Assembly (NCBI RefSeq): GCF_041886205.1
Contig: NZ_CP169029.1
Direction: 5' to 3' (one strand)
DNA: 64,000 nucleotides
Origin: Escherichia coli
GTDB taxonomy: Bacteria > Pseudomonadota > Gammaproteobacteria > Enterobacterales > Enterobacteriaceae
Part shown: piece after piece, positions 36,692 to 62,625 of the stretch
Numbering within the stretch: position 1 is the stretch's first letter
Layout of the letters: each line of letters starts with the position of its first letter
Notes under the pieces: generated by a model
Database searches by the model: none
Told to the model about the DNA's origin: nothing
Seen by the model: the letters and a program-made list of their open reading frames with translations, nothing else
Made by a program: the position numbers and the translations under genes

Positions 36692-39289
36692 TTAAACCGC
36701 AGTCTGGAAAATCACACCATCGGCTTTTTCAGTGTACTGAGAAAGCTGGTTGAAGTTCAGGTAACGGTAAGTATCAACGGCAGTTTTATCCACCTGCGCC
36801 ACGTAGGTCTGGTACTCTTCCGGCGTCGGTAGTTTGCCAATCAGCGCCGCAACAGCAGCCAGTTCCGCAGAAGCCAGGAAGACATTCGCGCCAGTCCCCA
36901 GACGGTTCGGGAAGTTACGGGTCGAGGTGGAAACCACCGTCGCGCCGTCTGCCACACGCGCCTGGTTACCCATACACAGGGAACAGCCAGGGATCTCGAT
37001 ACGCGCACCACTCTTACCGAAGACGCTGTAGTAGCCTTCTTCGGTCAACTGCGCGGCGTCCATACGGGTTGGCGGTGCTACCCACAGGCGGGTCGGCAAC
37101 TGACCTTTGTGTGCATCCAGCAGTTTACCCGCAGCACGGAAGTGACCGATGTTGGTCATGCAAGAACCGATAAACACTTCGTCGATCTTCTCACCCTGTA
37201 CCGCAGACAGCGGTCGCGCGTCATCCGGGTCGTTCGGAGCACACAGGATTGGCTCTTTAATATCCGCCAGATCGATGTCGATCACTGCCGCGTATTCCGC
37301 ATCTGCATCGGCTTCCAGCAGCTCAGGATTCGCCAGCCATTTTTCCATGCCCTGAATACGACGTTCCAGGGTACGACGATCGCCGTAACCTTCCGCGATC
37401 ATCCACTTCAGCAGGACGATGTTAGAGTTCAGGTATTCGATGATCGGTTCTTTGTTCAGCTTGATGGTACAACCGGCAGCAGAACGCTCGGCGGATGCAT
37501 CGGTCAGCTCAAAGGCCTGCTCAACTTTCAGATCCGGCAGACCTTCAATTTCGAGGATGCGGCCAGAGAAGATGTTTTTCTTGCCTTTCTTCTCAACGGT
37601 CAGCAGACCTTGTTTGATCGCATACAGCGGAATGGCGTGTACCAGATCGCGCAGGGTGATGCCCGGCTGCATTTTGCCTTTGAAGCGCACCAGAACGGAT
37701 TCCGGCATATCCAGCGGCATTACGCCAGTTGCGGCAGCAAACGCCACCAGACCAGAACCCGCCGGGAAAGAGATACCGATCGGGAAACGGGTATGGGAGT
37801 CACCACCGGTACCGACGGTATCCGGCAGCAGCATACGGTTCAGCCAGGAGTGGATTACGCCGTCCCCCGGACGCAGCGACACACCGCCACGGTTCATAAT
37901 GAAGTCCGGCAGCGTGTGGTGCGTGTTCACGTCAACTGGCTTCGGATACGCCGCGGTGTGGCAGAAAGACTGCATCACCAGGTCAGCCGAGAAGCCCAGG
38001 CACGCCAGGTCTTTCAGTTCATCACGGGTCATCGGGCCTGTGGTGTCCTGAGAGCCTACAGAAGTCATTTTCGGTTCACAGTACGCGCCCGGACGAATGC
38101 CTTTCACGCCACAGGCACGGCCTACCATTTTTTGCGCCAGCGAGAAGCCGCGATCGCTCTCAGCGACATCTTTCGCCTGACGGAACACATCACTGTGCGG
38201 CAGACCAAGTGCTTCACGCGCTTTGGTGGTCAGGCCACGCCCGATAATCAGCGGAATACGGCCGCCAGCACGCACTTCATCAATCAGCACGTCGGTTTTC
38301 AGTTCGAAGGTCGCCAGCAGTTCGCCTGTTTCGTGGTTACGCACTTCACCTTTGTACGGGTAAACGTCAATCACGTCGCCCATGTTCAGGTTAGAGACGT
38401 CGACTTCGATTGGCAGTGCACCCGCGTCTTCCATCGTGTTAAAGAAGATGGGTGCAATTTTACCGCCGAGGCACAAACCACCGCCGCGTTTGTTCGGCAC
38501 ATGTGGAATATCATCGCCCATAAACCACAGAACGGAGTTCGTGGCGGATTTACGCGATGAACCCGTACCCACAACGTCACCGACGTACGCCAGCGGGAAA
38601 CCTTTCTGTTGCAGAGCTTCAATCTGTTTGATCGGGCCAACAACACCTGGCTGGTCTGGCTCAATACCTTCACGGGCGTTTTTCAGCATCGCCAGCGCGT
38701 GCAGTGGGATATCCGGGCGCGACCACGCATCCGGTGCCGGAGAAAGGTCATCGGTGTTGGTTTCGCCAGTGACTTTGAAGACGGTAACGGTCAGTTTTTC
38801 AGCCAGCGCCGGGCGATTCAGGAACCATTCGGCATCCGCCCAGGACTGCATTACCTGCTTCGCATATTCGTTGCCTGCTTTGGCTTTCTCTTCTACGTCA
38901 TAGAAGTTATCGAACATCAGCAGTGTGTGAGAAAGTGCTTTGGCAGCGATCGGTGCCAGTTTGGCATCATCCAGCGCGTCGATCAGCGGATGAATGTTGT
39001 AACCACCCTGCATGGTACCCAGCAGTTCGATGGCTTTTTCCGGAGTCAGCAGAGGGGATTTGGCTTCGCCTTTAGCGATAGCAGCCAGGAAGCCTGCTTT
39101 GACATAGGCGGCTTCATCGACGCCAGGGGGAACACGGTTGGTTAATAGATCTAACAGGAATTCTTCTTCGCCCGCGGGCGGGTTTTTCAGCAGCTCTACA
39201 AGTGCGGCCATTTGGTTTGCATCCAGGGGTTTGGGCGCAATCCCCTCAGCGGCACGCTCAGCTACGTGCTTACGGTATTCTTCTAGCAC
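36692..39289 (-). CDS. acnB: Aconitate hydratase B (bifunctional aconitase / 2-methylisocitrate dehydratase)
   Basis: ORF 36692..39442; start refined to GTG at 39287-39289 giving [14 protein letters not shown] and 865 aa. Confidence 0.95.
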
Positions 39290-39643
39290 GACGGTTCTCC
39301 TCGCTCTCATTGTCATAGTGCGGCAGGCGATTCTCTTCACGCTCCTGTGAGACAGCAGTTTGTAGGGTAAATGCCCAGTACCGCAACGGGCAGAATAGCA
39401 GGATTTTGACGAGGTGTTAATCTGTTTACAAAAAAGCAACATAAAAAAGTGGCTGAATCGTTAAGGATGGTCTAGAGATTGTTTCCCTCCGTAAAAACTT
39501 CGTTAATTCGCATGGTGATAATCACCTTTCTCAACGAATCCCAAGATTAGTCAAAATTTAAACTACCGCCTCTTTATACTCGGATTCACAGCACCTGCGG
39601 GTGGCAGTTCGCCGACCATTGCGATTTCCTTGAGATCCGAATT

Positions 39644-41497
39644 ATGAAAATGACTTTGCCGTTTAAACCCCATGTGCTGGCGCTAATTTGCAGTGCCGGG
39701 CTTTGTGCCGCCTCTACCGGGCTATATATAAAAAGCCGCACAGTGGAAGCGCCTGTGGAACCGCAATCGACACAACTGGCTGTGTCTGACGCTGCCGCGG
39801 TTACGTTTCCTGCAACGGTTTCCGCACCTCCCGTAACACCCGCCGTCGTCAAATCCGCATTCAGCACTGCACAAATAGATCAATGGGTCGCGCCCGTCGC
39901 GCTGTATCCCGACGCCCTACTTTCGCAGGTGCTGATGGCATCAACCTATCCGACAAACGTTGCTCAAGCAGTGCAATGGTCGCACGATAATCCACTTAAA
40001 CAAGGCGATGCTGCTATTCAGGCGGTATCTGACCAGCCGTGGGACGCCAGCGTTAAATCACTGGTGGCCTTTCCACAATTGATGGCATTGATGGGCGAAA
40101 ACCCGCAATGGGTGCAAAACCTGGGCGATGCTTTTCTGGCCCAGCCGCAGGACGTGATGGACTCGGTACAGCGATTGCGGCAACTGGCGCAACAAACCGG
40201 CTCGCTGAAGTCATCAACCGAACAGAAAGTTATTACCACAACGAAGAAAGCTGTACCGGTAAAACAGACAGTCACGGCACCCGTCATACCATCCAATACA
40301 GTTTTAACTGCCAACCCCGTCATTACAGAGCCGGCAACAACCGTCATTTCCATTGAGCCCGCCAATCCTGATGTGGTCTATATTCCCAACTACAACCCAA
40401 CCGTGGTTTACGGGAACTGGGCCAATACTGCGTATCCGCCGGTTTATCTGCCACCACCAGCCGGAGAACCGTTTGTTGACAGCTTTGTACGCGGATTCGG
40501 CTATAGCATGGGCGTTGCTACCACGTACGCACTATTCAGCAGCATCGACTGGGACGACGACGATCATGACCATCATCATCATGACGATGATGATTATCAT
40601 CACCACGATGGCGGTCATCGTGACGGTAATGGCTGGCAACACAACGGCGACAACATCAATATCGACGTCAACAATTTCAACCGTATCACCGGTGAGCATC
40701 TTACTGATAAGAATATGGCATGGCGGCACAATCCAAACTACCGTAATGGTGTGCCCTATCATGATCAGGATATGGCAAAGCGGTTTCATCAAACCGATGT
40801 CAACGGCGGAATGAGCGCCACGCAATTACCTGCCCCAACGCGCGACAGCCAGCGTCAGGCGGCAGCAAATCAGTTTCAGCAACGAACACACGCCGCACCA
40901 GTCATTACACGAGATACCCAACGTCAGGCAGCGGCACAGCGGTTTAATGAAGCTGAACACTATGGGAGCTATGACGACTTCCACGACTTCAGCCGTCGCC
41001 AACCACTGACCCAGCAACAAAAGGACGCCGCTCGTCAGCGTTATCAGTCCGCCTCGCCTGAGCAGCGCCAGGCAGTTCGCGAGAGAATGCAGACTAACCC
41101 GCAGATCCAGCAGCGAAGAGAGGCAGCGCGTGAGCGCATTCAGTCCGCCTCGCCTGAGCAGCGCCAGGCGGTTCGCGAGAAAATGCAGACTAACCCGCAG
41201 AACCAGCAGCGAAGAGACGCAGCGCGTGAGCGTATTCAGTCCGCATCACCAGAGCAGCGCCAGGTGTTTAAGGAAAAAGTACAGCAGCGCCCACTGAATC
41301 AACAGCAACGTGATAACGCCCGCCAGCGTGTTCAATCGGCATCACCTGAACAACGTCAGGTTTTTCGGGAAAAAGTTCAGGAGAGCCGCCCACAACGTCT
41401 AAACGACAGTAACCATACTGTCAGGCTGAATAACGAGCAACGGTCAGCAGTACGCGAACGTCTCTCTGAGCGCGGAGCAAGGCGACTGGAAAGGTAA
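39644..41497 (+). CDS. yacH: Secreted DUF3300-like protein of unknown function with His/Asp-rich tract and C-terminal 32-aa tandem repeats
   Basis: 617-aa ORF with signal peptide; low-complexity DWDDDDHDHHHHDDDDYHHHDGGH; four SASPEQRQ-containing repeats. Confidence 0.85.
   Translation: MKMTLPFKPHVLALICSAGLCAASTGLYIKSRTVEAPVEPQSTQLAVSDAAAVTFPATVSAPPVTPAVVKSAFSTAQIDQWVAPVALYPDALLSQVLMASTYPTNVAQAVQWSHDNPLKQGDAAIQAVSDQPWDASVKSLVAFPQLMALMGENPQWVQNLGDAFLAQPQDVMDSVQRLRQLAQQTGSLKSSTEQKVITTTKKAVPVKQTVTAPVIPSNTVLTANPVITEPATTVISIEPANPDVVYIPNYNPTVVYGNWANTAYPPVYLPPPAGEPFVDSFVRGFGYSMGVATTYALFSSIDWDDDDHDHHHHDDDDYHHHDGGHRDGNGWQHNGDNINIDVNNFNRITGEHLTDKNMAWRHNPNYRNGVPYHDQDMAKRFHQTDVNGGMSATQLPAPTRDSQRQAAANQFQQRTHAAPVITRDTQRQAAAQRFNEAEHYGSYDDFHDFSRRQPLTQQQKDAARQRYQSASPEQRQAVRERMQTNPQIQQRREAARERIQSASPEQRQAVREKMQTNPQNQQRRDAARERIQSASPEQRQVFKEKVQQRPLNQQQRDNARQRVQSASPEQRQVFREKVQESRPQRLNDSNHTVRLNNEQRSAVRERLSERGARRLER
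41030..41413 (+). repeat. Four tandem about 96-bp in-frame repeats inside yacH (first two nearly identical)
   Basis: Direct DNA repeats read from sequence: ...cagtccgcctcgcctgagcagcgccagg(c/g)ggttcgcgaga(g/a)aatgcagactaacccgcag... recurring at about 41031, 41127, 41223, 41319. Confidence 0.85.
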
Positions 41498-41508
41498 ATT
41501 ACAGACGT

Positions 41509-41560
41509 AAAAAAAGCGGCGTGGTTAGCCGCTTTTTTAATTGCCGGATGTTCCGGCAAA
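41509..41560. terminator. Bidirectional terminator region between convergent yacH and lpd (agcggc/gccgct flanked by A- and T-runs, plus second hairpin tgccgg/ccggca)
   Basis: Two hairpins read from sequence; AAAAAAA-stem-loop-TTTTTT architecture. Confidence 0.8.
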
Positions 41561-41567
41561 CGAAAAA

Positions 41568-42992
41568 TTACTTCTTCTTCGCTTTCGGGTTCGGCAGGTC
41601 GGTAATGCTACCTTCGAACACTTCTGCCGCCAGGCCCACAGACTCGTGCAGAGTCGGGTGCGCGTGGATGGTCAGTGCGATGTCTTCAGCATCACAACCC
41701 ATTTCGATTGCCAGACCGATTTCACCCAGCAGCTCACCGCCGTTAGTACCGACAATCGCACCACCGATCACACGGTGAGATTCTTTGTCGAAAATCAGCT
41801 TGGTCATACCGTCTGCGCAGTCGGAAGCGATAGCACGGCCAGAAGCAGCCCACGGGAAGGTGGCGGTCTCAAAGCTGATGCCTTTCTCTTTCGCTTCTTT
41901 CTCAGTCAGACCTACCCATGCAACTTCTGGTTCGGTATAGGCGATGGACGGGATAACTTTCGGATCGAAGTAATGTTTTTTACCGGCGATAACTTCAGCG
42001 GCAACGTGACCTTCGTGAACACCTTTATGTGCCAGCATTGGCTGACCGACGATATCGCCGATAGCAAAGATGTGCGGTACGTTGGTACGCAGTTGTTTGT
42101 CAACGCGGATGAAACCACGGTCGTCAACTTCCACGCCAGCTTTGCCTGCGTCGAGGTTTTTACCGTTCGGCACACGACCAATCGCTACCAGCACGGCGTC
42201 GTAACGCTGCGGTTCAGCGGGTGCTTTTTTGCCTTCCATCGTCACATAAATGCCGTCTTCTTTCGCTTCAACGGCGGTAACTTTGGTTTCCAGCATCAGG
42301 TTGAATTTCTTGCTGATACGCTTGGTGAAGACTTTAACGATGTCTTTGTCAGCTGCCGGGATAACCTGGTCGAACATTTCAACCACGTCAATCTGTGAAC
42401 CCAGCGCGTGGTAAACGGTGCCCATTTCCAGACCGATGATACCGCCACCCATTACCAGCAGGCGTTCTGGTACTTCTTTCAGTTCCAGCGCGTCAGTGGA
42501 GTCCCAGATACGCGGATCTTCATGCGGAATAAACGGCAGTTGGATCGGGCGAGAACCCGCTGCAATGATCGCGTTGTCGAAGTTGATCACGGTTTTACCG
42601 TTCTCACCTTCAACTTCCAGGGTGTTAGCCCCGGTGAATTTACCCAGACCGTTGACCACTTTGACTTTGCGGCCTTTCGCCATACCAGCCAGACCACCGG
42701 TCAGCTGATTGATCACTTTCTCTTTCCAGGTACGAATCTTGTCGATATCGGTTTTCGGTTCGCCGAAGACGATACCATGTTCAGCCAGCGCTTTGGCTTC
42801 TTCGATAACTTTTGCTACGTGCAGCAGTGCTTTAGAAGGGATACAGCCGACGTTCAGGCAAACACCGCCAAGGGTGTTGTAACGTTCTACGATTACGGTT
42901 TCCAGACCTAAATCAGCGCAACGGAAGGCAGCGGAGTAACCTGCGGGGCCTGCCCCAAGTACCACGACCTGAGTTTTGATTTCAGTACTCAT
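41568..42992 (-). CDS. lpd: Dihydrolipoyl dehydrogenase (E3 of PDH/OGDH/GCV)
   Basis: ORF 41568..43025; start refined to MSTEIKTQVVVLGAGPAGY (cat 42990-42992); redox CLNVGC; 474 aa. Confidence 0.96.
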   Translation of the reverse strand: MSTEIKTQVVVLGAGPAGYSAAFRCADLGLETVIVERYNTLGGVCLNVGCIPSKALLHVAKVIEEAKALAEHGIVFGEPKTDIDKIRTWKEKVINQLTGGLAGMAKGRKVKVVNGLGKFTGANTLEVEGENGKTVINFDNAIIAAGSRPIQLPFIPHEDPRIWDSTDALELKEVPERLLVMGGGIIGLEMGTVYHALGSQIDVVEMFDQVIPAADKDIVKVFTKRISKKFNLMLETKVTAVEAKEDGIYVTMEGKKAPAEPQRYDAVLVAIGRVPNGKNLDAGKAGVEVDDRGFIRVDKQLRTNVPHIFAIGDIVGQPMLAHKGVHEGHVAAEVIAGKKHYFDPKVIPSIAYTEPEVAWVGLTEKEAKEKGISFETATFPWAASGRAIASDCADGMTKLIFDKESHRVIGGAIVGTNGGELLGEIGLAIEMGCDAEDIALTIHAHPTLHESVGLAAEVFEGSITDLPNPKAKKK

Positions 42993-43039
42993 CATGACCT
43001 CTATATATTTATCTCCGGCGGTCATACCCGTCGTCTTTC

Positions 43040-43135
43040 AGGCCGCAGCGGCGTTAGCTTCACGCCCTCACCCCAGTCACTTACTTATGTAAGCTCCTGG
43101 GGATTCTGGCGCTTGCTACCTTGCTGCACCCAGAA
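43040..43135. repeat. ERIC/IRU element (inverse orientation relative to the panC copy) between aceF and lpd
   Basis: CCCTCACCCCAGTCACTTACTTATGTAAGCTCCTGGGGATTC is the reverse complement of the ERIC core. Confidence 0.8.
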
Positions 43136-43316
43136 ATCCATAGGGTATGTGAAGTAATACCCTAACCACCACCGGGTCGTTCTATCCGTCGGTATTTTAC
43201 AAAATTGTTAACAATTTTTAAACAACAAACGGCAACCGATTTGTCTATTCGCTAATAACCTCAATACATTCATGAGATTACCAGAAAAAAGCCGGCCGTT
43301 TGGCCGGCTCTTTTAC

Positions 43317-45209
43317 TTACATCACCAGGCGGCGAATGTCAGACAGCGTGTTGTTAATGATGGTAATGAAACGGGCACCATCAGCACCGTCGATCACGCG
43401 GTGGTCGAAGGAGAGAGAAATCGGCAGCATCAGACGCGGCACGAACTCTTTACCATTCCACACCGGCTCCATCGCGGACTTGGAAACGCCGAGGATAGCC
43501 ACTTCCGGCGCGTTCACAATCGGCGCGAAGTGGGTAGTACCCAGGCCGCCGATGCTGGAGATGGTGAAGCAACCGCCCTGCATTTCGCCCGCAGTCAGCT
43601 TACCGTCACGCGCTTTCTTAGAAATAGTCATCAGCTCGCGAGACAGCTCGATGATGCCTTTCTTGTTGACGTCTTTGAATACCGGAACAACCAGACCGTT
43701 CGGGGTATCCACCGCCACACCGATGTTGATGTACTTCTTCAGGGTCAGACGCTGACCGTCTTCCGACAGCGAACTGTTGAAGCGAGGCATCTGCTCAAGA
43801 GCTGCAGCAACGGCTTTCATGATGAAGACAACCGGGGTTATCTTCACATCCAGCTTACGTTTCGCCGCTTCTTCGTTCTGCTGTTTACGGAACGCTTCCA
43901 GCTCGGTGATATCGGTTTTGTCGAAGTGAGTAACATGCGGGATCATCACCCAGTTACGGCTCAGGTTCGCCCCAGAGATTTTCTGGATACGGCCCAGTTC
44001 CACTTCTTCGATTTCACCAAACTTGCTAAAGTCCACCTTCGGCCACGGCAGCATGCCTGGGATACCGCCGCCAGTCGCCGCCGGAGCTGCTTCTGCACGT
44101 TTGATAGCTTCTTTCACGTAAGCCTGAACGTCTTCGCGCAGGATACGACCTTTACGGCCAGTGCCCTTCACTTTCGCCAGGTTAACGCCAAACTCGCGTG
44201 CCAGACGGCGGATCAGCGGAGTCGCGTGAACGTAAGCGTCGTTTTCAGCAAATTCAGATTTGCCTTCCGCTTTTGCAGCCGGAGCTGCTGCCGGGGCTTC
44301 AGCTTTTGCTGCCGGAGCCGGCGCTGCCGCTTCCTGTTTCGCAGGAGCTGCAGCAGGCGCTGCGCCTTCAACTTCGAAGATCATAATCAGCGAACCAGTT
44401 TTCACTTTATCGCCAACGTTGACTTTCAGTTCCTTCACGACGCCTGCAAACGGAGCCGGAACTTCCATAGACGCTTTATCGCCTTCTACGGTGATCAGTG
44501 ACTGTTCAGCGGCAACTTTGTCGCCCACTTTCACCATCACTTCGGTGACTTCAACTTCGTCACCGCCGATATCCGGAACGTTAACTTCTTTCACGCCAGC
44601 TGCTGGTGCAGGAGCCGCTGCCGGAGCCGCTTCCTGTTTAGCCGCCGGAGCTGCCGCGCCTGCTTCACCCGCGACTTCGAAGACCATAATCAGCGAGCCG
44701 GTAGACACTTTGTCACCCACGTTCACTTTGATCTCTTTCACGGTGCCAGCAAACGGAGCCGGAACTTCCATAGAAGCCTTGTCGCCTTCTACGGTGATCA
44801 GCGACTGTTCAGCTTCAACTTTATCGCCAACTTTCACCAGGATTTCGGTCACTTCAACTTCGTCGCTGCCGATATCCGGAACGTTAACGTCTTTTGCCGC
44901 TGCAGCCGCTGGTGCTGCTGCCGGAGCTGCTTCTTTCTTCTCTTCTGCCTGAGCAGGTGCAGCGTCTGCTGCACCGTCGGCGGAATCGAAAATCATAATC
45001 AGTGCGCCGGTCTGGGTTTTATCGCCAACAGAGACTTTGATCTCTTTAACAATACCCGCCTGCGGAGACGGAACTTCCATAGAGGCTTTGTCGCCTTCTA
45101 CGGTGATCAGCGACTGTTCGGCTTCAACTTTGTCGCCCACTTTGACCAGGATCTCGGTGATTTCAACTTCATCAGCCCCGATGTCCGGTACTTTGATTTC
45201 GATAGCCAT
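43317..45209 (-). CDS. aceF: Pyruvate dehydrogenase E2 (dihydrolipoamide acetyltransferase) with three lipoyl domains
   Basis: 630-aa ORF; three repeated lipoyl domains (…[10 protein letters not shown]…) separated by Ala/Pro-rich linkers; catalytic DHRxxDG. Confidence 0.96.
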
Positions 45210-45223
45210 TATTCTTTTACCTC

Positions 45224-47887
45224 TTACGCCAGACGCGGGTTAACTTTATCTGCATCGATGTTGAATTTGGCGATTGCGTCAGCAACCACTTTCTTATCGA
45301 TTTCGCCACGTTTAGCCAGTTCGCCCAGCGCCGCTACAACCACGTAGGAAGCATCAACTTCGAAGTGGTGACGCAGGTTCTCACGGCTGTCGGAACGACC
45401 GAAGCCATCAGTACCCAGTACGCGGTAGTCGTCAGCCGGTACGTAAGTACGGACCTGCTCAGCGAACAGTTTCATATAGTCGGTAGATGCCACTGCCGGA
45501 GCGTCGTTCATCACCTGAGCGATATACGGAACGCGCGGAGTTTCCAGCGGGTGCAGCATGTTCCAGCGTTCACAATCCTGACCATCACGCGCCAGCTCGG
45601 TGAAGGAGGTCACGCTATAAACGTCAGAACCTACGCCGTAATCTTTCGCCAGGATCTCTGCCGCTTCACGGACGTGACGCAGGATAGAACCGGAGCCCAG
45701 CAGCTGAACTTTACCTTTGCTACCTTCAATGGTTTCGAGTTTGTAGATACCTTTACGGATACCTTCCTCAGCACCTTCCGGCATTGCCGGCATGTGATAG
45801 TTTTCGTTCAGCGTGGTGATGTAGTAGTAAACGTTCTCTTGTTTTTCACCGTACATACGCTCCAGACCGTCATGCATGATGACAGCAACTTCGTAAGCGT
45901 AAGCCGGGTCGTAAGAGATACAGTTCGGGATAGTCAGCGACTGAATGTGGCTGTGACCATCTTCGTGCTGCAGACCTTCGCCGTTCAGGGTGGTACGACC
46001 GGAAGTACCGCCGATCAGGAAGCCACGCGCTTGCTGGTCGCCAGCCGCCCAGCACAGATCGCCAATACGCTGGAAGCCGAACATCGAGTAATAGATGTAG
46101 AACGGAATCATCGGCAGATTGTTGGTGCTGTAAGAGGTCGCCGCTGCCAGCCAGGAACAACCTGCGCCCAGCTCGTTGATCCCTTCCTGCAGAATCTGAC
46201 CTTTCTCGTCTTCTTTATAGTAAGCAACCTGCTCGCGGTCCTGCGGGGTGTACTGCTGACCGTTCGGGCTGTAAATACCAATCTGACGGAACAGACCTTC
46301 CATACCGAAAGTACGCGCTTCGTCGGCGATGATCGGTACCAGACGATCTTTGATCGACTTGTTCTTCAGCATCACGTTCAGAGCACGAACGAAAGCGATA
46401 GTGGTAGAGATCTCTTTGCTCTGCTCTTCCAACAGCGCGCCGAAGTCTTGCAGGCTCGGCAGCTCAAGCTTCTCGGTGAAGTTCGGCTGACGGCTTGGCA
46501 GATAACCGTGCAGTTTCTGACGCTGAGCGTGCAGATAGGTATGCTCTTCAGAACCTTCCGGGAAGGTGATGTACGGCAATTTTTCGATATCTGCATCAGA
46601 CACCGGCACATTGAAACGGTCGCGGATATGACGCACACCGTCCATGTTCATTTTCTTAACCTGGTGCGCGATGTTTTTACCTTCAGCCGCGTCGCCCATG
46701 CCGTAACCTTTAATGGTATGAGCAAGGATTACTGTCGCTTTGCCTTTGGTTTCCTGCGCTTTCTTGAATGCAGCGTAGATTTTCTTCGGATCGTGACCAC
46801 CACGGTTCAGTGCCCAGATCTGCTCGTCAGTCCAGTCTGCAACCAGTGCTGCGGTTTCAGGATATTTACCGAAGAAGTGTTCACGAACGTACGCACCATC
46901 TTTCGATTTGAAGGTCTGGTAGTCGCCGTCAACGGTTTCGTTCATCAGCTGGATCAGTTTACCGCTGGTATCCTTACGCAGCAGTTCATCCCAACGGCTA
47001 CCCCACATCACTTTGATCACGTTCCAGCCAGCACCTTCGAAGATGCCTTCCAGTTCGTTGATGATCTTGCCGTTACCGGTGACCGGGCCGTCAAGACGCT
47101 GCAGGTTACAGTTGATAACGAAGACCAGGTTATCCAGTTTTTCACGGGTAGCGATGGTGATCGCACCTTTGGATTCCGGTTCGTCCATTTCACCGTCACC
47201 GAGGAACGCGTAAACGGTTTGTTTAGAGGTATCTTTCAGGCCACGGTGTTCCAGATATTTCAGGAATTTAGCCTGGTAAATAGCACCAATCGGACCCAGA
47301 CCCATAGATACGGTCGGGAACTGCCAGAATTCCGGCATCAGTTTCGGGTGCGGATAGGAAGAGAGGCCATTGCCGTGAACTTCCTGACGGAAGTTATCCA
47401 GCTGCTCCTGAGTCAGACGACCTTCCAGGAAAGCACGAGCGTAAACGCCCGGGGAGATGTGGCCCTGGAAGTAAACCAGGTCGCCGCCATCCTGCTCGTT
47501 GCGTGCACGGAAGAAGTGGTTAAAGCACACATCATAAATGGTTGCGGAAGACTGGAAGGACGCCATATGGCCGCCCAGTTCGAGGTCTTTTTTCGACGCA
47601 CGCAGAACCGTCATGATGGCGTTCCAGCGGATAGCTGAACGAATACGGCGTTCCAGTTCCAGATTACCCGGATACTCCGGTTGTTCTTCAACGGGGATGG
47701 TGTTGATGTAGTTGCTGATACCGGTGCCTGCGGCTACGTTTACACCGCCTTTGCGGGCTTCAGCAAGCAGTTGGTCGATCAGATACTGAGCACGCTCAAC
47801 ACCTTCTTCACGGATGACCGATTCGATCGCCTGGAGCCAGTCGCGAGTTTCGATCGGATCCACGTCATTTGGGAAACGTTCTGACAT
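45224..47887 (-). CDS. aceE: Pyruvate dehydrogenase E1 component
   Basis: 887-aa [26 protein letters not shown]. Confidence 0.96.
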
Positions 47888-48047
47888 GGGTTATTCCTTA
47901 TCTATCTAATAACGTTGAGTTTTCTGGAACCTGTCCCATTGAACTCTCGCCGGAAAGCTCAATAAGACAGGTTCTACGTTTAGTTGCCGCGCTTTTATAT
48001 GCGCTTGATTTACAACATCTTCTGGATAATTTTTACCAGAAAAATCA

Positions 48048-48812
48048 CTAATTCTTTCGTTGCTCCAGACGACGCAGAGAACGCTCACGGCGGCTTTCTT
48101 CACGGCTTCTGTCGAGCAAAATTTCTTCGATAAAGGCCAGATGGCGATGCGATGCTTCGCGCGCTTCTTCCGGCTTACCGGCCATAATCGCTTCAAATAT
48201 GCGGGTGCGGTGACTACTCACCAGCGGCAGCATCTCGCGACGCGAATAGAGCAATTCGAAGTTCTGGCGGACATTCTGGGCCAACATCGGCTCCATACAC
48301 CTTAGCAGATGAAGCAGAACCACATTGTGGGCCGCTTCAGTGACAGCAATCTGATACTGGAGTACGGCGTTTGATTCCGCGTCCAGATCGCCAGACTGCT
48401 GCGCCAGTTCTATGGCGTGATGGAGTTCACGGATGCGTTCCTTGTCTTCATCGGTACTACGCAGCGCGGCGTAATAAGCGGCGATACCTTCCAGGGCGTG
48501 TCGTGTTTCGAGCAAGTCATACTGTGACTCAGGATGGTCGGAGAGCAGCTCCACCAGCGGATCGCTGAAGCTTTGCCATAGGCTGCTCTGGACAAAAGTG
48601 CCGCCACCCTGGCGACGAAGCAACAAGCCCTTCGCTTCGAGACGTTGAATCGCCTCACGCAAGGAGGGACGGGAGACGTCAAACTGTTTTGCCAGTTCGC
48701 GTTCCGGTGGGAGTTTTTCGCCCGGGCGGAGAGTGCCTTCGAGGATCAAAAACTCCAGTTGCTGCTCAATCACATCGGAGAGTTTTGGTTGGCGGATTTT
48801 GCTGTAGGCCAT
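48048..48812 (-). CDS. pdhR: Pyruvate dehydrogenase complex repressor (GntR family)
   Basis: ORF 48048..48845; start refined to [17 protein letters not shown] (cat 48810-48812); [28 protein letters not shown]; 254 aa. Confidence 0.94.
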
Positions 48813-59261: not shown

Positions 59262-59470
<209 letters not shown>

Positions 59471-59476
<6 letters not shown>

Positions 59477-59860: not shown

Positions 59861-59879
59861 TGTCTTAAACCTATAAAAA

Positions 59880-59899
59880 AGGCGCAGAATCCTGCGCCT
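59880..59899 (-). terminator. Hairpin (aggcgcag/ctgcgcct) with T-run on minus strand between secA and mutT; putative partial terminator/attenuator
   Basis: 8-bp stem, 4-nt loop; AAAAAA on plus strand at 59875-59880. Confidence 0.55.
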
Positions 59900-59919
59900 T
59901 TTACTTCAACTGTTAGCTT

Positions 59920-62625
59920 TTATTGCAGGCGACCATGGCACTGCTTGTATTTTTTACCAGAACCGCACGGGCAAGGATCGTTACGTCCTACTTTGCGTTC
60001 ACCGGTTTGCGCCGCCAGTGCAGCTGCGGCTGCAGAGTCGTCATCCTGATGGCTAAGCTGCTGCATTTGCGCTAAACGCTCGGCTTCTATACGACGCTGT
60101 TGTTCCAGCTCCTCAACCTCTTCAGGCATACGTACCTGAACTTTGCTCAGCGTACTGATAACTTCATATTTCAACGACTCCAGCATCGCTGCAAACATGG
60201 AGAACGATTCACGTTTGTATTCCTGCTTCGGATCTTTCTGTGCGTAGCCACGCAGGTGGATACCCTGACGCAGATAGTCCATCGCTGCCAGGTGCTCTTT
60301 CCACAGGGAGTCAAGCGTTTGCAGCATGACGCCTTTCTCGAAGTGACGCATCATCTCAGCACCAACCACTTCTTCTTTACGCTGATACACTTCGATGGAC
60401 TGCGCCAGAATGCGCTCACGCAGCGTCTCTTCATGCAGTTCTGGTTCTTTATCCAGCCACTCAGCAATTGGTAAATCGAGGTCGAAATCGTTCTTCAGAC
60501 GTTCCTGCAGCCCCGGAATATCCCACATTTCTTCCAGCGACTGTGGCGGAATGTAGGCATCAATGGTCGCTTTGAACACATCTTCACGAATGCTGTTAAT
60601 GGTTTCGCTCACATCACTGACATCCAGCAGTTCGTTACGCTGGGAGTAAATGGCGCGACGCTGATCGTTAGCCACGTCATCATATTCCAGCAGTTGCTTA
60701 CGAATGTCGAAGTTACGGCTTTCAACTTTACGCTGGGCGTTGGCAATCGCTTTGGTCACCCACGGGTGTTCAATGGCTTCGCCTGGCTTCATACCCAGTT
60801 TACGCATCATGCCGGATACTCGGTCGGAAGCAAAAATACGCATCAGCGCATCTTCCATCGACAGGTAGAAACGGGAAGAACCAGCATCCCCCTGACGACC
60901 AGAACGACCGCGCAACTGGTTATCGATACGACGGGATTCGTGACGCTCGGTACCGATGATATGCAGGCCACCTGCTGCCAGTACCGCATCGTGACGTACC
61001 TGCCAGTCGGCTTTAATTTTTTCAATTTGCTCTGCGGTCGGATTTTCCAGCGCGGCAACTTCTGCCTGCCAGCTACCACCGAGCACAATATCTGTACCAC
61101 GACCCGCCATGTTGGTCGCGATAGTCACCGCAGCCGGATAACCTGCCTGAGCAACAATCGCCGCTTCGTTGGCGTGGAATTTGGCGTTCAGGACGTTGTG
61201 CTTAATACCGGCTTTGGTCAGTTCGTTTGATACCAGCTCCGATTTTTCGATGGAGATAGTACCCACCAGCACCGGTTGGCCTTTCGCAGTACGTTCTTTG
61301 ATATCTTCAATGATCGCCTGAATTTTTTCCGCTTCAGTCATGTAGACCAGGTCCGGCAGATCTTTACGAATCATTGGACGGTTGGTCGGAACAACGACGG
61401 TATCCAGCTTGTAGATGGAGCTGAATTCGAAAGCTTCGGTATCAGCAGTACCGGTCATCCCCGCCAGTTTTTCATACAGACGGAAGTAGTTCTGGAAGGT
61501 GATCGAAGCCAGCGTTTGGTTTTCGTTCTGGATCTGCACACCTTCTTTCGCTTCCACAGCCTGGTGAAGACCATCGGACCAGCGACGGCCCTGCATGGTA
61601 CGACCGGTGTGTTCGTCAACGATGATAACTTCACCATCTTTAACGATGTAGTCGACGTCACGGGTAAACAGCGCATGAGCGCGCAGCGCCGCCGTTACGT
61701 GGTGCATCAGCATGATGTTGGCCGGAGAGTACAGAGACTCCCCTTCATCCATGATGCCTTCTTTCACCAGCAGTTCTTCAATCAGCACCAGACCACGTTC
61801 GGTCAGGTTCACCTGGCGAGATTTTTCGTCCACCGAGAAGTGGCCTTCGCCCTGGAAGGTTTCGGAGTCTTCTTTTTCCTGACGGATCAGGTGCGGAATA
61901 ATTTTATTCACGCGTTTATACATTTCCGAGCTGTCTTCTGCCGGGCCAGAAATGATCAGCGGTGTACGCGCTTCATCGATCAGGATGGAGTCCACTTCGT
62001 CCACCAGCGCATAGTGCAGTTTACGCTGTACACGTTCTTCAGGACTGAACGCCATGTTGTCGCGCAGGTAGTCAAAGCCGTATTCGTTGTTCGTACCGTA
62101 AGTGATGTCAGCTGCGTAAGCTTCACGCTTCGCTGGTGCTGGCATACCCGGCAGGTTGATACCGACAGTCAGGCCAAGGAATTCAAACAGCGGACGGTTG
62201 TTTTCGGCGTCACGTTGCGCCAGGTAGTCGTTCACGGTAACTACGTGCACGCCTTTACCGGTTAGTGCGTTCAGGTAAGCAGGCAGCGTTGCGGTCAGGG
62301 TTTTACCTTCACCGGTACGCATTTCGGCGATGCAGCGTTCGTTAAGAACCATACCGCCGAGTAACTGAACGTCGAAGTGACGCATACCAAAGACGCGCTT
62401 ACTTGCCTCACGCACCACGGCGAAAGCTTCCGGGATCAGATTTTCCAGCACTTCGCCTTTTTCCAGACGTGCACGAAACTCTGCGGTTTTACCTTTCAGT
62501 TCTTCGTCGGAGAGTTTTTCCATCTCCGGTTCCATGGCATTGATGATGTTGACCACTTTGCGCATCCGGCGCAGGGTGCGATCGTTACGACTACCGAAAA
62601 CTTTAGTTAATAATTTGATTAGCAT
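59920..62625 (-). CDS. secA: Preprotein translocase ATPase SecA
   Basis: 901-aa [26 protein letters not shown]...; C-terminal zinc-binding [14 protein letters not shown]. Confidence 0.97.

Follow-up and report, generated by a model that had tools for sequence, protein, structure and literature searches.

The 64,000-nt window analysed here comes from Escherichia coli (NCBI RefSeq assembly GCF_041886205.1, contig NZ_CP169029.1). Its minus strand carries, in order, pdhR (48048-48812), aceE (45224-47887), aceF and lpd (41568-42992). On the plus strand, opposite the spacer between pdhR and aceE, lies the antisense sRNA family tp2 of Rfam (47890-48003). The main features of aceF and its downstream edge are the following.

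43317-45209, minus strand: aceF coding sequence, 630 aa plus stop; E2p, the dihydrolipoyllysine-residue acetyltransferase of the pyruvate dehydrogenase complex
44124-44231, minus strand: E3-binding (peripheral subunit binding) domain, residues 327-362, Pfam E3_binding
43323-44015, minus strand: catalytic acyltransferase domain, residues 399-629, Pfam 2-oxoacid_dh (E = 2.4e-80), with a DHRVIDG motif that fits the DHRxxDG active-site motif
43290-43309: GC-rich, terminator-like hairpin directly past the aceF stop codon, 18 nt inside antisense ORF A (listed below)

The product of aceF matches the NCBIfam equivalog NF008814 over residues 1-630 with 1101.5 bits (cut-off 722) and TIGR01348 with 1041.6 bits (cut-off 552), and it aligns at full length, residues 1-630, with the cryo-EM structure PDB 7b9k (1323 bits). 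Pfam domains occur in the order Biotin_lipoyl three times, E3_binding and 2-oxoacid_dh. Together with the equivalog match, lipoyl DKA motifs, an E3-binding and a catalytic domain, and an operon position between aceE (E1p) and lpd (E3) mark the product as the long form of AceF/E2p. The matching gene is annotated as aceF in 5,424 complete E. coli genomes, in 5,410 of which it is 97-100% identical to the window gene at the DNA level. Strain VE-T9 provides the best match (99.9%), and RefSeq annotates its locus as pdhR, aceE, aceF, lpdA and yacH, with no feature on the strand opposite aceF. The window allele shares 98.3% DNA identity with aceF of the K-12-derived J53 strains. AceF of E. coli K-12 (PDB 7b9k, 4n72, 1qjo) is the same gene, with the same domains and the same pdhR-aceE-aceF-lpd context, and there is no architectural difference between the two. 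The region under study is thus the 5′ end of the E. coli aceF gene, and the triplication of lipoyl domains that it encodes is already known as textbook biochemistry.

At this 5′ end, a unit of 303-309 bp occurs three times in tandem, each copy comprising a lipoyl domain and an Ala/Pro linker, just as an earlier note on this DNA had described.

44901-45209, minus strand: repeat unit 1, lipoyl domain 1 (codons 1-76) and linker 1 (codons 77-103); codon of lipoyl-lysine K41 at 45087-45089
44598-44900, minus strand: repeat unit 2, lipoyl domain 2 and linker 2 (codons 104-204); codon of lipoyl-lysine K144 at 44778-44780
44289-44597, minus strand: repeat unit 3, lipoyl domain 3 and the first part of linker 3 (codons 205-307); codon of lipoyl-lysine K245 at 44475-44477

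Chance falls far short of explaining the repeat. At 44446-45188, Tandem Repeats Finder detects 2.4 copies with a period of 309 and 80% matches (score 892), and a separate repeat search places copies of 300 nt at 44311, 44614 and 44923, spaced 303 and 309 nt apart, with identities of 78% and 67%. Aligned over codons 1-103, 104-204 and 205-307, the units, which also account for the three Biotin_lipoyl domains, have a mean column identity of 84%. Among the 76-residue domain cores, DNA identity is 76% for domains 1 and 2, 75% for domains 1 and 3, and 84% for domains 2 and 3. Each of the three predicted lipoyl-lysines sits within an EGDKA motif. The three lipoyl domains of AceF have been described as 73% identical and functionally redundant (PMC8421416). 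Contrary to its description, this DNA is not especially rich in GC: the GC content is 53.6% in the repeat, 52.0% in the window and 55.9% in the remainder of aceF. Only the linkers reach 61-69%; the domain cores lie at 49-51%.

The strand opposite aceF contains two long open reading frames, both at the positions that the earlier note gave for them.

43272-44501, plus strand: antisense ORF A of 409 aa, beginning with ATG; most of it faces the catalytic and E3-binding domains
44260-44952, plus strand: antisense ORF B of 230 aa, beginning with TTG; it faces lipoyl domains 3 and 2 and the linkers
44499-44501, minus strand: the sole TCA codon of aceF (Ser237); read on the other strand as TGA, it ends ORF A, and that frame has no other stop anywhere in the gene

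These ORFs had been described as repetitive, rich in Ala, Gly, Ser and Thr, and generated by the GC-rich repeat. The description of their composition fits ORF B, whose translation is repetitive and contains 24% Ala, 19% Ser and 14% Thr. It does not fit ORF A, which is rich in Arg (14%) and Phe (11%). ORF A overlaps the repeat only in its final ~210 nt, within unit 3. The two ORFs also lie in different frames, and they are open for different reasons.

In the codon-aligned antisense frame, which is that of ORF A, stops arise solely from the sense codons TTA, CTA and TCA. The 630 codons of aceF include no TTA, no CTA and a single TCA, where 8.9 of the three together would be expected at the usage of the 32 other window genes. 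ORF A is open because aceF is almost devoid of these codons. Beyond the stop at Ser237 the same frame continues open for a further 281 codons, with no start codon until 45258. When aceF codons were redrawn from background usage, the frame acquired ~9 stops and remained open over 394 codons or more in 2.4% of trials, whereas shuffling the gene's own synonymous codons gave a stretch that long in 88% of trials.

The neighbouring genes of the operon behave in the same way. The codon-aligned antisense frame contains one stop in aceF, two in aceE and two in lpd, and long ORFs in this frame lie opposite both of the latter, repeat-free genes (757 aa opposite aceE, 285 aa opposite lpd). TTA, CTA and TCA together occur twice in aceE, where 16.7 are expected, and twice in lpd, where 7.3 are expected. 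Per 100 codons, the values for aceF (0.16), aceE (0.23) and lpd (0.42) are the three lowest among 35 window genes, for which the median is 2.13. Since aceE and lpd carry comparable ORFs without any repeat, the repeat does not generate ORF A. Avoidance of TTA, CTA and TCA in highly expressed genes would leave the codon-aligned antisense frame open, and this is reportedly the classical explanation, attributed to Merino 1994 and Silke 1997, of the long 'shadow' ORFs that lie opposite genes with a strong codon bias. ORF A and its counterparts opposite aceE and lpd resemble such classical shadow ORFs in both frame and codon avoidance. ORF B differs from them, lying in another frame and being open through amino acid composition and not codon choice.

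The third codon positions of ORF B coincide with those of aceF. A stop in this frame requires a sense Tyr codon preceded by one with T or C at its third position, or a His or Gln codon preceded by one with T there. Residues 1-325 of AceF contain no Tyr, no His and eight Gln. The open stretch of the frame extends over 238 codons (44236-44949), bounded by stops at Ala325-Tyr326 and, in linker 1, at Ala86-Gln87. Tyr326, the first Tyr of AceF, adjoins the E3-binding domain and gives rise to the TAA at 44233-44235 that forms the low-coordinate bound. Because residues 1-325 lack Tyr and His, ORF B stays open under every synonymous recoding: in 2,000 synonymous shuffles and 2,000 background-usage redraws, the frame always had at least 238 open codons, with means of 310 and 334, respectively. 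Across the whole gene the frame contains seven stops, where these null models give 3.6-4.0. With more stops than the null models give, nothing suggests selection holding the ORF B frame open. Indeed, neither antisense ORF is longer than the protein sequence and codon usage of aceF would predict.

We therefore consider it unlikely that the triplicated, supposedly GC-rich repeat DNA is by itself the whole cause of both ORFs. Support for this view comes from ORF B, which is internally repetitive and whose open length tracks the number of lipoyl domains, from 238 codons with three domains to 145 in the two-domain gene of E. coli strain DSM 103263 and 174 in strain 463, which has lost 64 residues. 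Loss of a domain thus shortens the stretch markedly, and in a strain that has gained three Ala residues it spans 241 codons. Further, aceF has the longest open stretch in the ORF B type of frame among the 35 window genes. Against this, a non-repetitive ORF of 916 codons at 36692-39442 is open for 220 codons in the same type of frame, the GC content of the repeat is hardly above the window mean, and most of ORF A falls outside the repeat. The immediate causes are codon avoidance for ORF A and absent Tyr and His for ORF B. What remains of the claim is that triplication adds length and repetitiveness to ORF B; it does not cause its openness. Domain tripling multiplies a stop-free unit, which makes ORF B repetitive and ~100 codons longer per domain.

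Both antisense ORFs are thus very probably passive by-products of constraints on the sense strand, namely codon avoidance and missing Tyr and His, and not genes, and we infer that they are not expressed. Their dismissal as spurious in the earlier note agrees with the signals sought on the opposite strand, including the codon-usage scoring that it had proposed as a check. With codon log-odds derived from 32 genes of the window, those genes reach +0.25 bits per codon (sd 0.10) and their other frames -0.34. On this scale aceF scores +0.42, ORF A -0.19 and ORF B -0.42, the worst of the frames tested. Such scores have been argued to be poor for any antisense-embedded gene (PMC7457138). Searches of Pfam and NCBIfam with ORF A and ORF B yielded no family match, and no plus-strand promoter-like site was found in 43000-45300. 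ORF B contains no in-frame ATG, its starts being TTG and GTG only. No Shine-Dalgarno motif is obvious by eye upstream of either ORF. When ORF B was compared with phage records by tblastn, the sole match was the antisense strand of a Salmonella aceF, and it was set aside.

It is very improbable that the opposite strand of the repeat produces a functional non-coding antisense RNA regulating aceF. Essentially nothing at the repeat itself speaks for such an RNA, the nearest indication being the tp2 family near the start of aceE. The interval 43000-45400 contains no Rfam match at threshold on either strand; even with a permissive cut-off there was only noise, the best hit having 27.7 bits where the gathering score is 60. 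Plus-strand promoter-like sites are likewise absent.

The behaviour of the two frames across species bears on whether either of them could encode a protein. We recovered aceF from 80 species, 78 of which provided complete genes, all from Enterobacterales. Loci from E. albertii and Dickeya that might have passed for two-domain genes begin inside aceF; they were rejected as such and left out of the 78. Between the window gene and Salmonella, the translation of the ORF A frame has an identity of 0.70, compared with 0.90-0.96 for the sense frame and 0.65-0.71 for the other off-frames. The ORF A translation therefore diverges between species like that of non-coding frames.

The ORF B frame gives a different picture. 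It is open for 94-346 codons within the lipoyl region in all 78 Enterobacterales, and its translation is 80-98% conserved between species. These figures are what might be expected if ORF B, or part of it, were a real antisense overlapping gene, encoding a repetitive Ala/Ser/Thr-rich protein and tolerated through the coinciding wobble positions. However, both openness and conservation follow from the AceF sequence alone, and the number of stops in this frame within the lipoyl region ranges between zero and seven among the species. Against Salmonella, the translation of this frame has an identity of 0.87 where it is open, nearly matching AceF itself, and of 0.90 opposite the catalytic half, in which stops abound. 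Equal conservation in open and closed parts means that the conservation of ORF B is a property of the genetic code and not evidence of function. Conservation tests are nearly blind in this frame because the wobble positions coincide; purifying selection on an ORF B product could pass unseen by them.

Precedents for antisense genes have been claimed in E. coli, including pop opposite ompA, ano and laoB (PMC7103648, PMC5960689, PMC5810103). Like ORF A and ORF B, these candidates are long ORFs fully embedded antisense to an annotated gene. They rest on RNA-seq, ribosome profiling and phenotypes, whereas the sequence signals of a gene are missing at the aceF ORFs. ORF B is also without PGAP annotation. 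The accessible text and 18 supplementary files of a broad survey of embedded antisense genes in E. coli (10.1101/2020.11.18.388249) make no mention of aceF, aceE, lpdA or acetyltransferase product names, and the tags Z0125, ECs0119 and b0115 are absent from those same parts. A literature search for an aceF antisense product found nothing specific. With its seven stops where about four occur in synonymous shuffles, its lack of an ATG, a promoter-like site or an evident ribosome-binding motif, and its poor coding score, ORF B is extremely improbable as a gene.

The earlier note had also called the repeat a known hotspot for domain-number variation. All 78 complete Enterobacterales genes encode three lipoyl domains, and the range in AceF length (622-670 aa) comes from the linkers. 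For E. coli, domain number was surveyed with two 198-nt probes, each placed across a unique linker. An earlier census, which required at least 80% coverage of the 920-nt lipoyl region, had been dropped because the repeats cross-align, so that strain 463, with a 192-nt deletion, still gave 88%. Among the 5,423 E. coli genomes carrying the region, the junction between domains 1 and 2 is intact in 5,421 and that between domains 2 and 3 in 5,413. Neither probe detected a duplicated inter-domain junction in any of these genomes. Genomes with a deletion number at most about 12 of 5,423 (0.2%), which is an upper bound.

The deletions that do occur are real. Strain DSM 103263 encodes an AceF of 528 aa that lacks exactly domain 2, with the new junction in an EAAPAAAPA motif common to linkers 1 and 2, and we infer that this deletion arose by recombination between repeats. 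Strain 463 encodes an AceF of 566 aa with a 64-aa, out-of-register deletion, in which the second VGDKV of domain 2 is fused to the first VGDKV of domain 3. Smaller linker indels are also found, such as a gain of AAA in strain B2C and a loss of AAPA in strain LR-24. A different kind of change is seen in strain AB_24_S34, where a segment at nt ~137-407 of aceF is 13-14% divergent. Conversion by the gene's own domains 2 or 3 was rejected as its source, as the segment is 71-80% identical to the paralogous units versus 90% to the orthologous region of a Citrobacter species. It is more likely, on these identities, to be an import from another species.

Loss of whole domains is also known from elsewhere. 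Serratia symbiotica endosymbionts have naturally lost one or two lipoyl domains (PMC5013485), and versions of AceF with fewer domains were engineered by Guest et al. 1985, as cited in that article. These reduced proteins show whole-domain loss as in DSM 103263; the window aceF keeps the standard three. Such variants lend the notion of a hotspot some weak support, but the term overstates domain-number variation in free-living enterobacteria, in which domain number is very stable. Retention of three domains despite clear recombination between the repeats is consistent with selection for their number, which Dave et al. 1995 reportedly observed in growth experiments.

Stability in number does not mean that the units evolve independently. 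For domains 2 and 3, DNA identity is 0.846 between paralogues within a species, 0.796 between paralogues of different species and 0.811 between orthologues. At third positions, identity is 0.657 within species versus 0.557 across species. In a four-point test over 3,003 species pairs, the topology in which paralogues group by species was obtained for domains 2 and 3 in 79% of pairs, rising to 94% among the most divergent, compared with 2-3% of pairs for domains 1 and 2 or 1 and 3. The within-species excess at third positions is +0.10 for domains 2 and 3, against +0.03 to +0.04 for domain 1, taken as the baseline set by species-specific codon usage. This pattern in the aligned genes points to recurrent gene conversion that involves domains 2 and 3 but not domain 1, with copy number constant at three. 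A literature search found no report of gene conversion between lipoyl domains; we do not claim novelty for it.

The retention of three domains, the concerted evolution of domains 2 and 3, and the rare natural deletions are side results of modest value. There is the slimmest of chances that ORF B, or a smaller ORF within it, is translated at a low level, persisting across Enterobacterales as selection on AceF preserves the wobble-coincident frame for free. If so, ORF B would represent a proto-gene available ready-made, with a length set by how many lipoyl domains are present. The wider lesson concerns scans of genomes for overlapping genes. An antisense ORF of 230-409 codons can be wholly predictable from the sense gene, through either codon avoidance or missing Tyr and His, and in the wobble-coincident frame, cross-species conservation of the antisense translation is uninformative.

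Across Enterobacterales, the second and third lipoyl domains of AceF evolve in concert, and the first does not. The comparison set window 44376-44891 against aceF of 80 species (loci L002-L081). In a four-point test over 3,003 species pairs, the topology grouped by species was favoured for domains 2 and 3 in 79% of pairs, and in only 2-3% for domains 1 and 2 or 1 and 3. Third-position identity between domains 2 and 3 was likewise 0.657 within species versus 0.557 across species.

Two E. coli strains carry natural deletions within the repeat:

L082:2207-3793, two-domain aceF of DSM 103263 (NZ_CP192200.1), with the equivalent of window 44598-44900 deleted
L001:3001-4701, deletion-variant aceF of strain 463 (NZ_CP183105.1)

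As assembled, DSM 103263 encodes a natural AceF of 528 aa with two lipoyl domains, having lost exactly domain 2, with the join inside the EAAPAAAPA motif common to linkers 1 and 2. The 566-aa AceF of strain 463 has an out-of-register deletion of 64 aa that fuses two VGDKV motifs, the second one in domain 2 and the first one in domain 3, by way of the two-fold pseudo-repeat within the lipoyl domain.

The Ala/Pro linkers of aceF also differ in length among E. coli strains (loci L085 and L086), the two affected being:

Window 44892-44981, linker 1, longer by AAA in strain B2C
Window 44235-44375, linker 3, shorter by AAPA in strain LR-24

A different kind of variation is found at window ~44800-45075 (aceF nt 137-407), where identity falls to just 80-90% in 31 E. 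coli genomes. In AB_24_S34 (locus L083), this segment holds 38 differences in 270 nt, compared with about 1% in the rest of the gene. Because it is closest to a Citrobacter orthologue (90% identity), the segment in AB_24_S34 may be an imported mosaic tract.

Several RNA and protein features lie elsewhere in the window:

Window 47890-48003, plus strand, tp2 sRNA, a full-length Rfam match (103 bits; gathering score 50)
Window 59278-59471 and 59875-59944, minus strand, naRNA4 (CssrE, REP-type), matched twice, and STnc40, matched once, each reaching its Rfam gathering score
Window 39644-41497, plus strand, YacH, a DUF3300 protein

The tp2 match runs antisense to the pdhR-aceE spacer; a published RNase III cleavage site is located in this intergenic region (PMC5371410). 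Near its C-terminus, YacH has about four tandem repeats containing SASPEQRQ, and it also carries a His/Asp-rich run, DDDDHDHHHHDDDDYHHHD.

The neighbouring genes of the operon harbour long antisense frames of their own:

Window 45365-47638, plus strand, antisense ORF in aceE, 757 aa
Window 41541-42398, plus strand, antisense ORF in lpd, 285 aa

The mechanical ORF list gives lpd itself as 485 aa (41568-43025, minus strand), beginning at an in-frame ATG upstream of the annotated lpdA start (42992, 474 aa). Both antisense frames are codon-aligned with their genes, and they share a cause with ORF A, the antisense frame in aceF: all three are open because the codons TTA, CTA and TCA are nearly absent.
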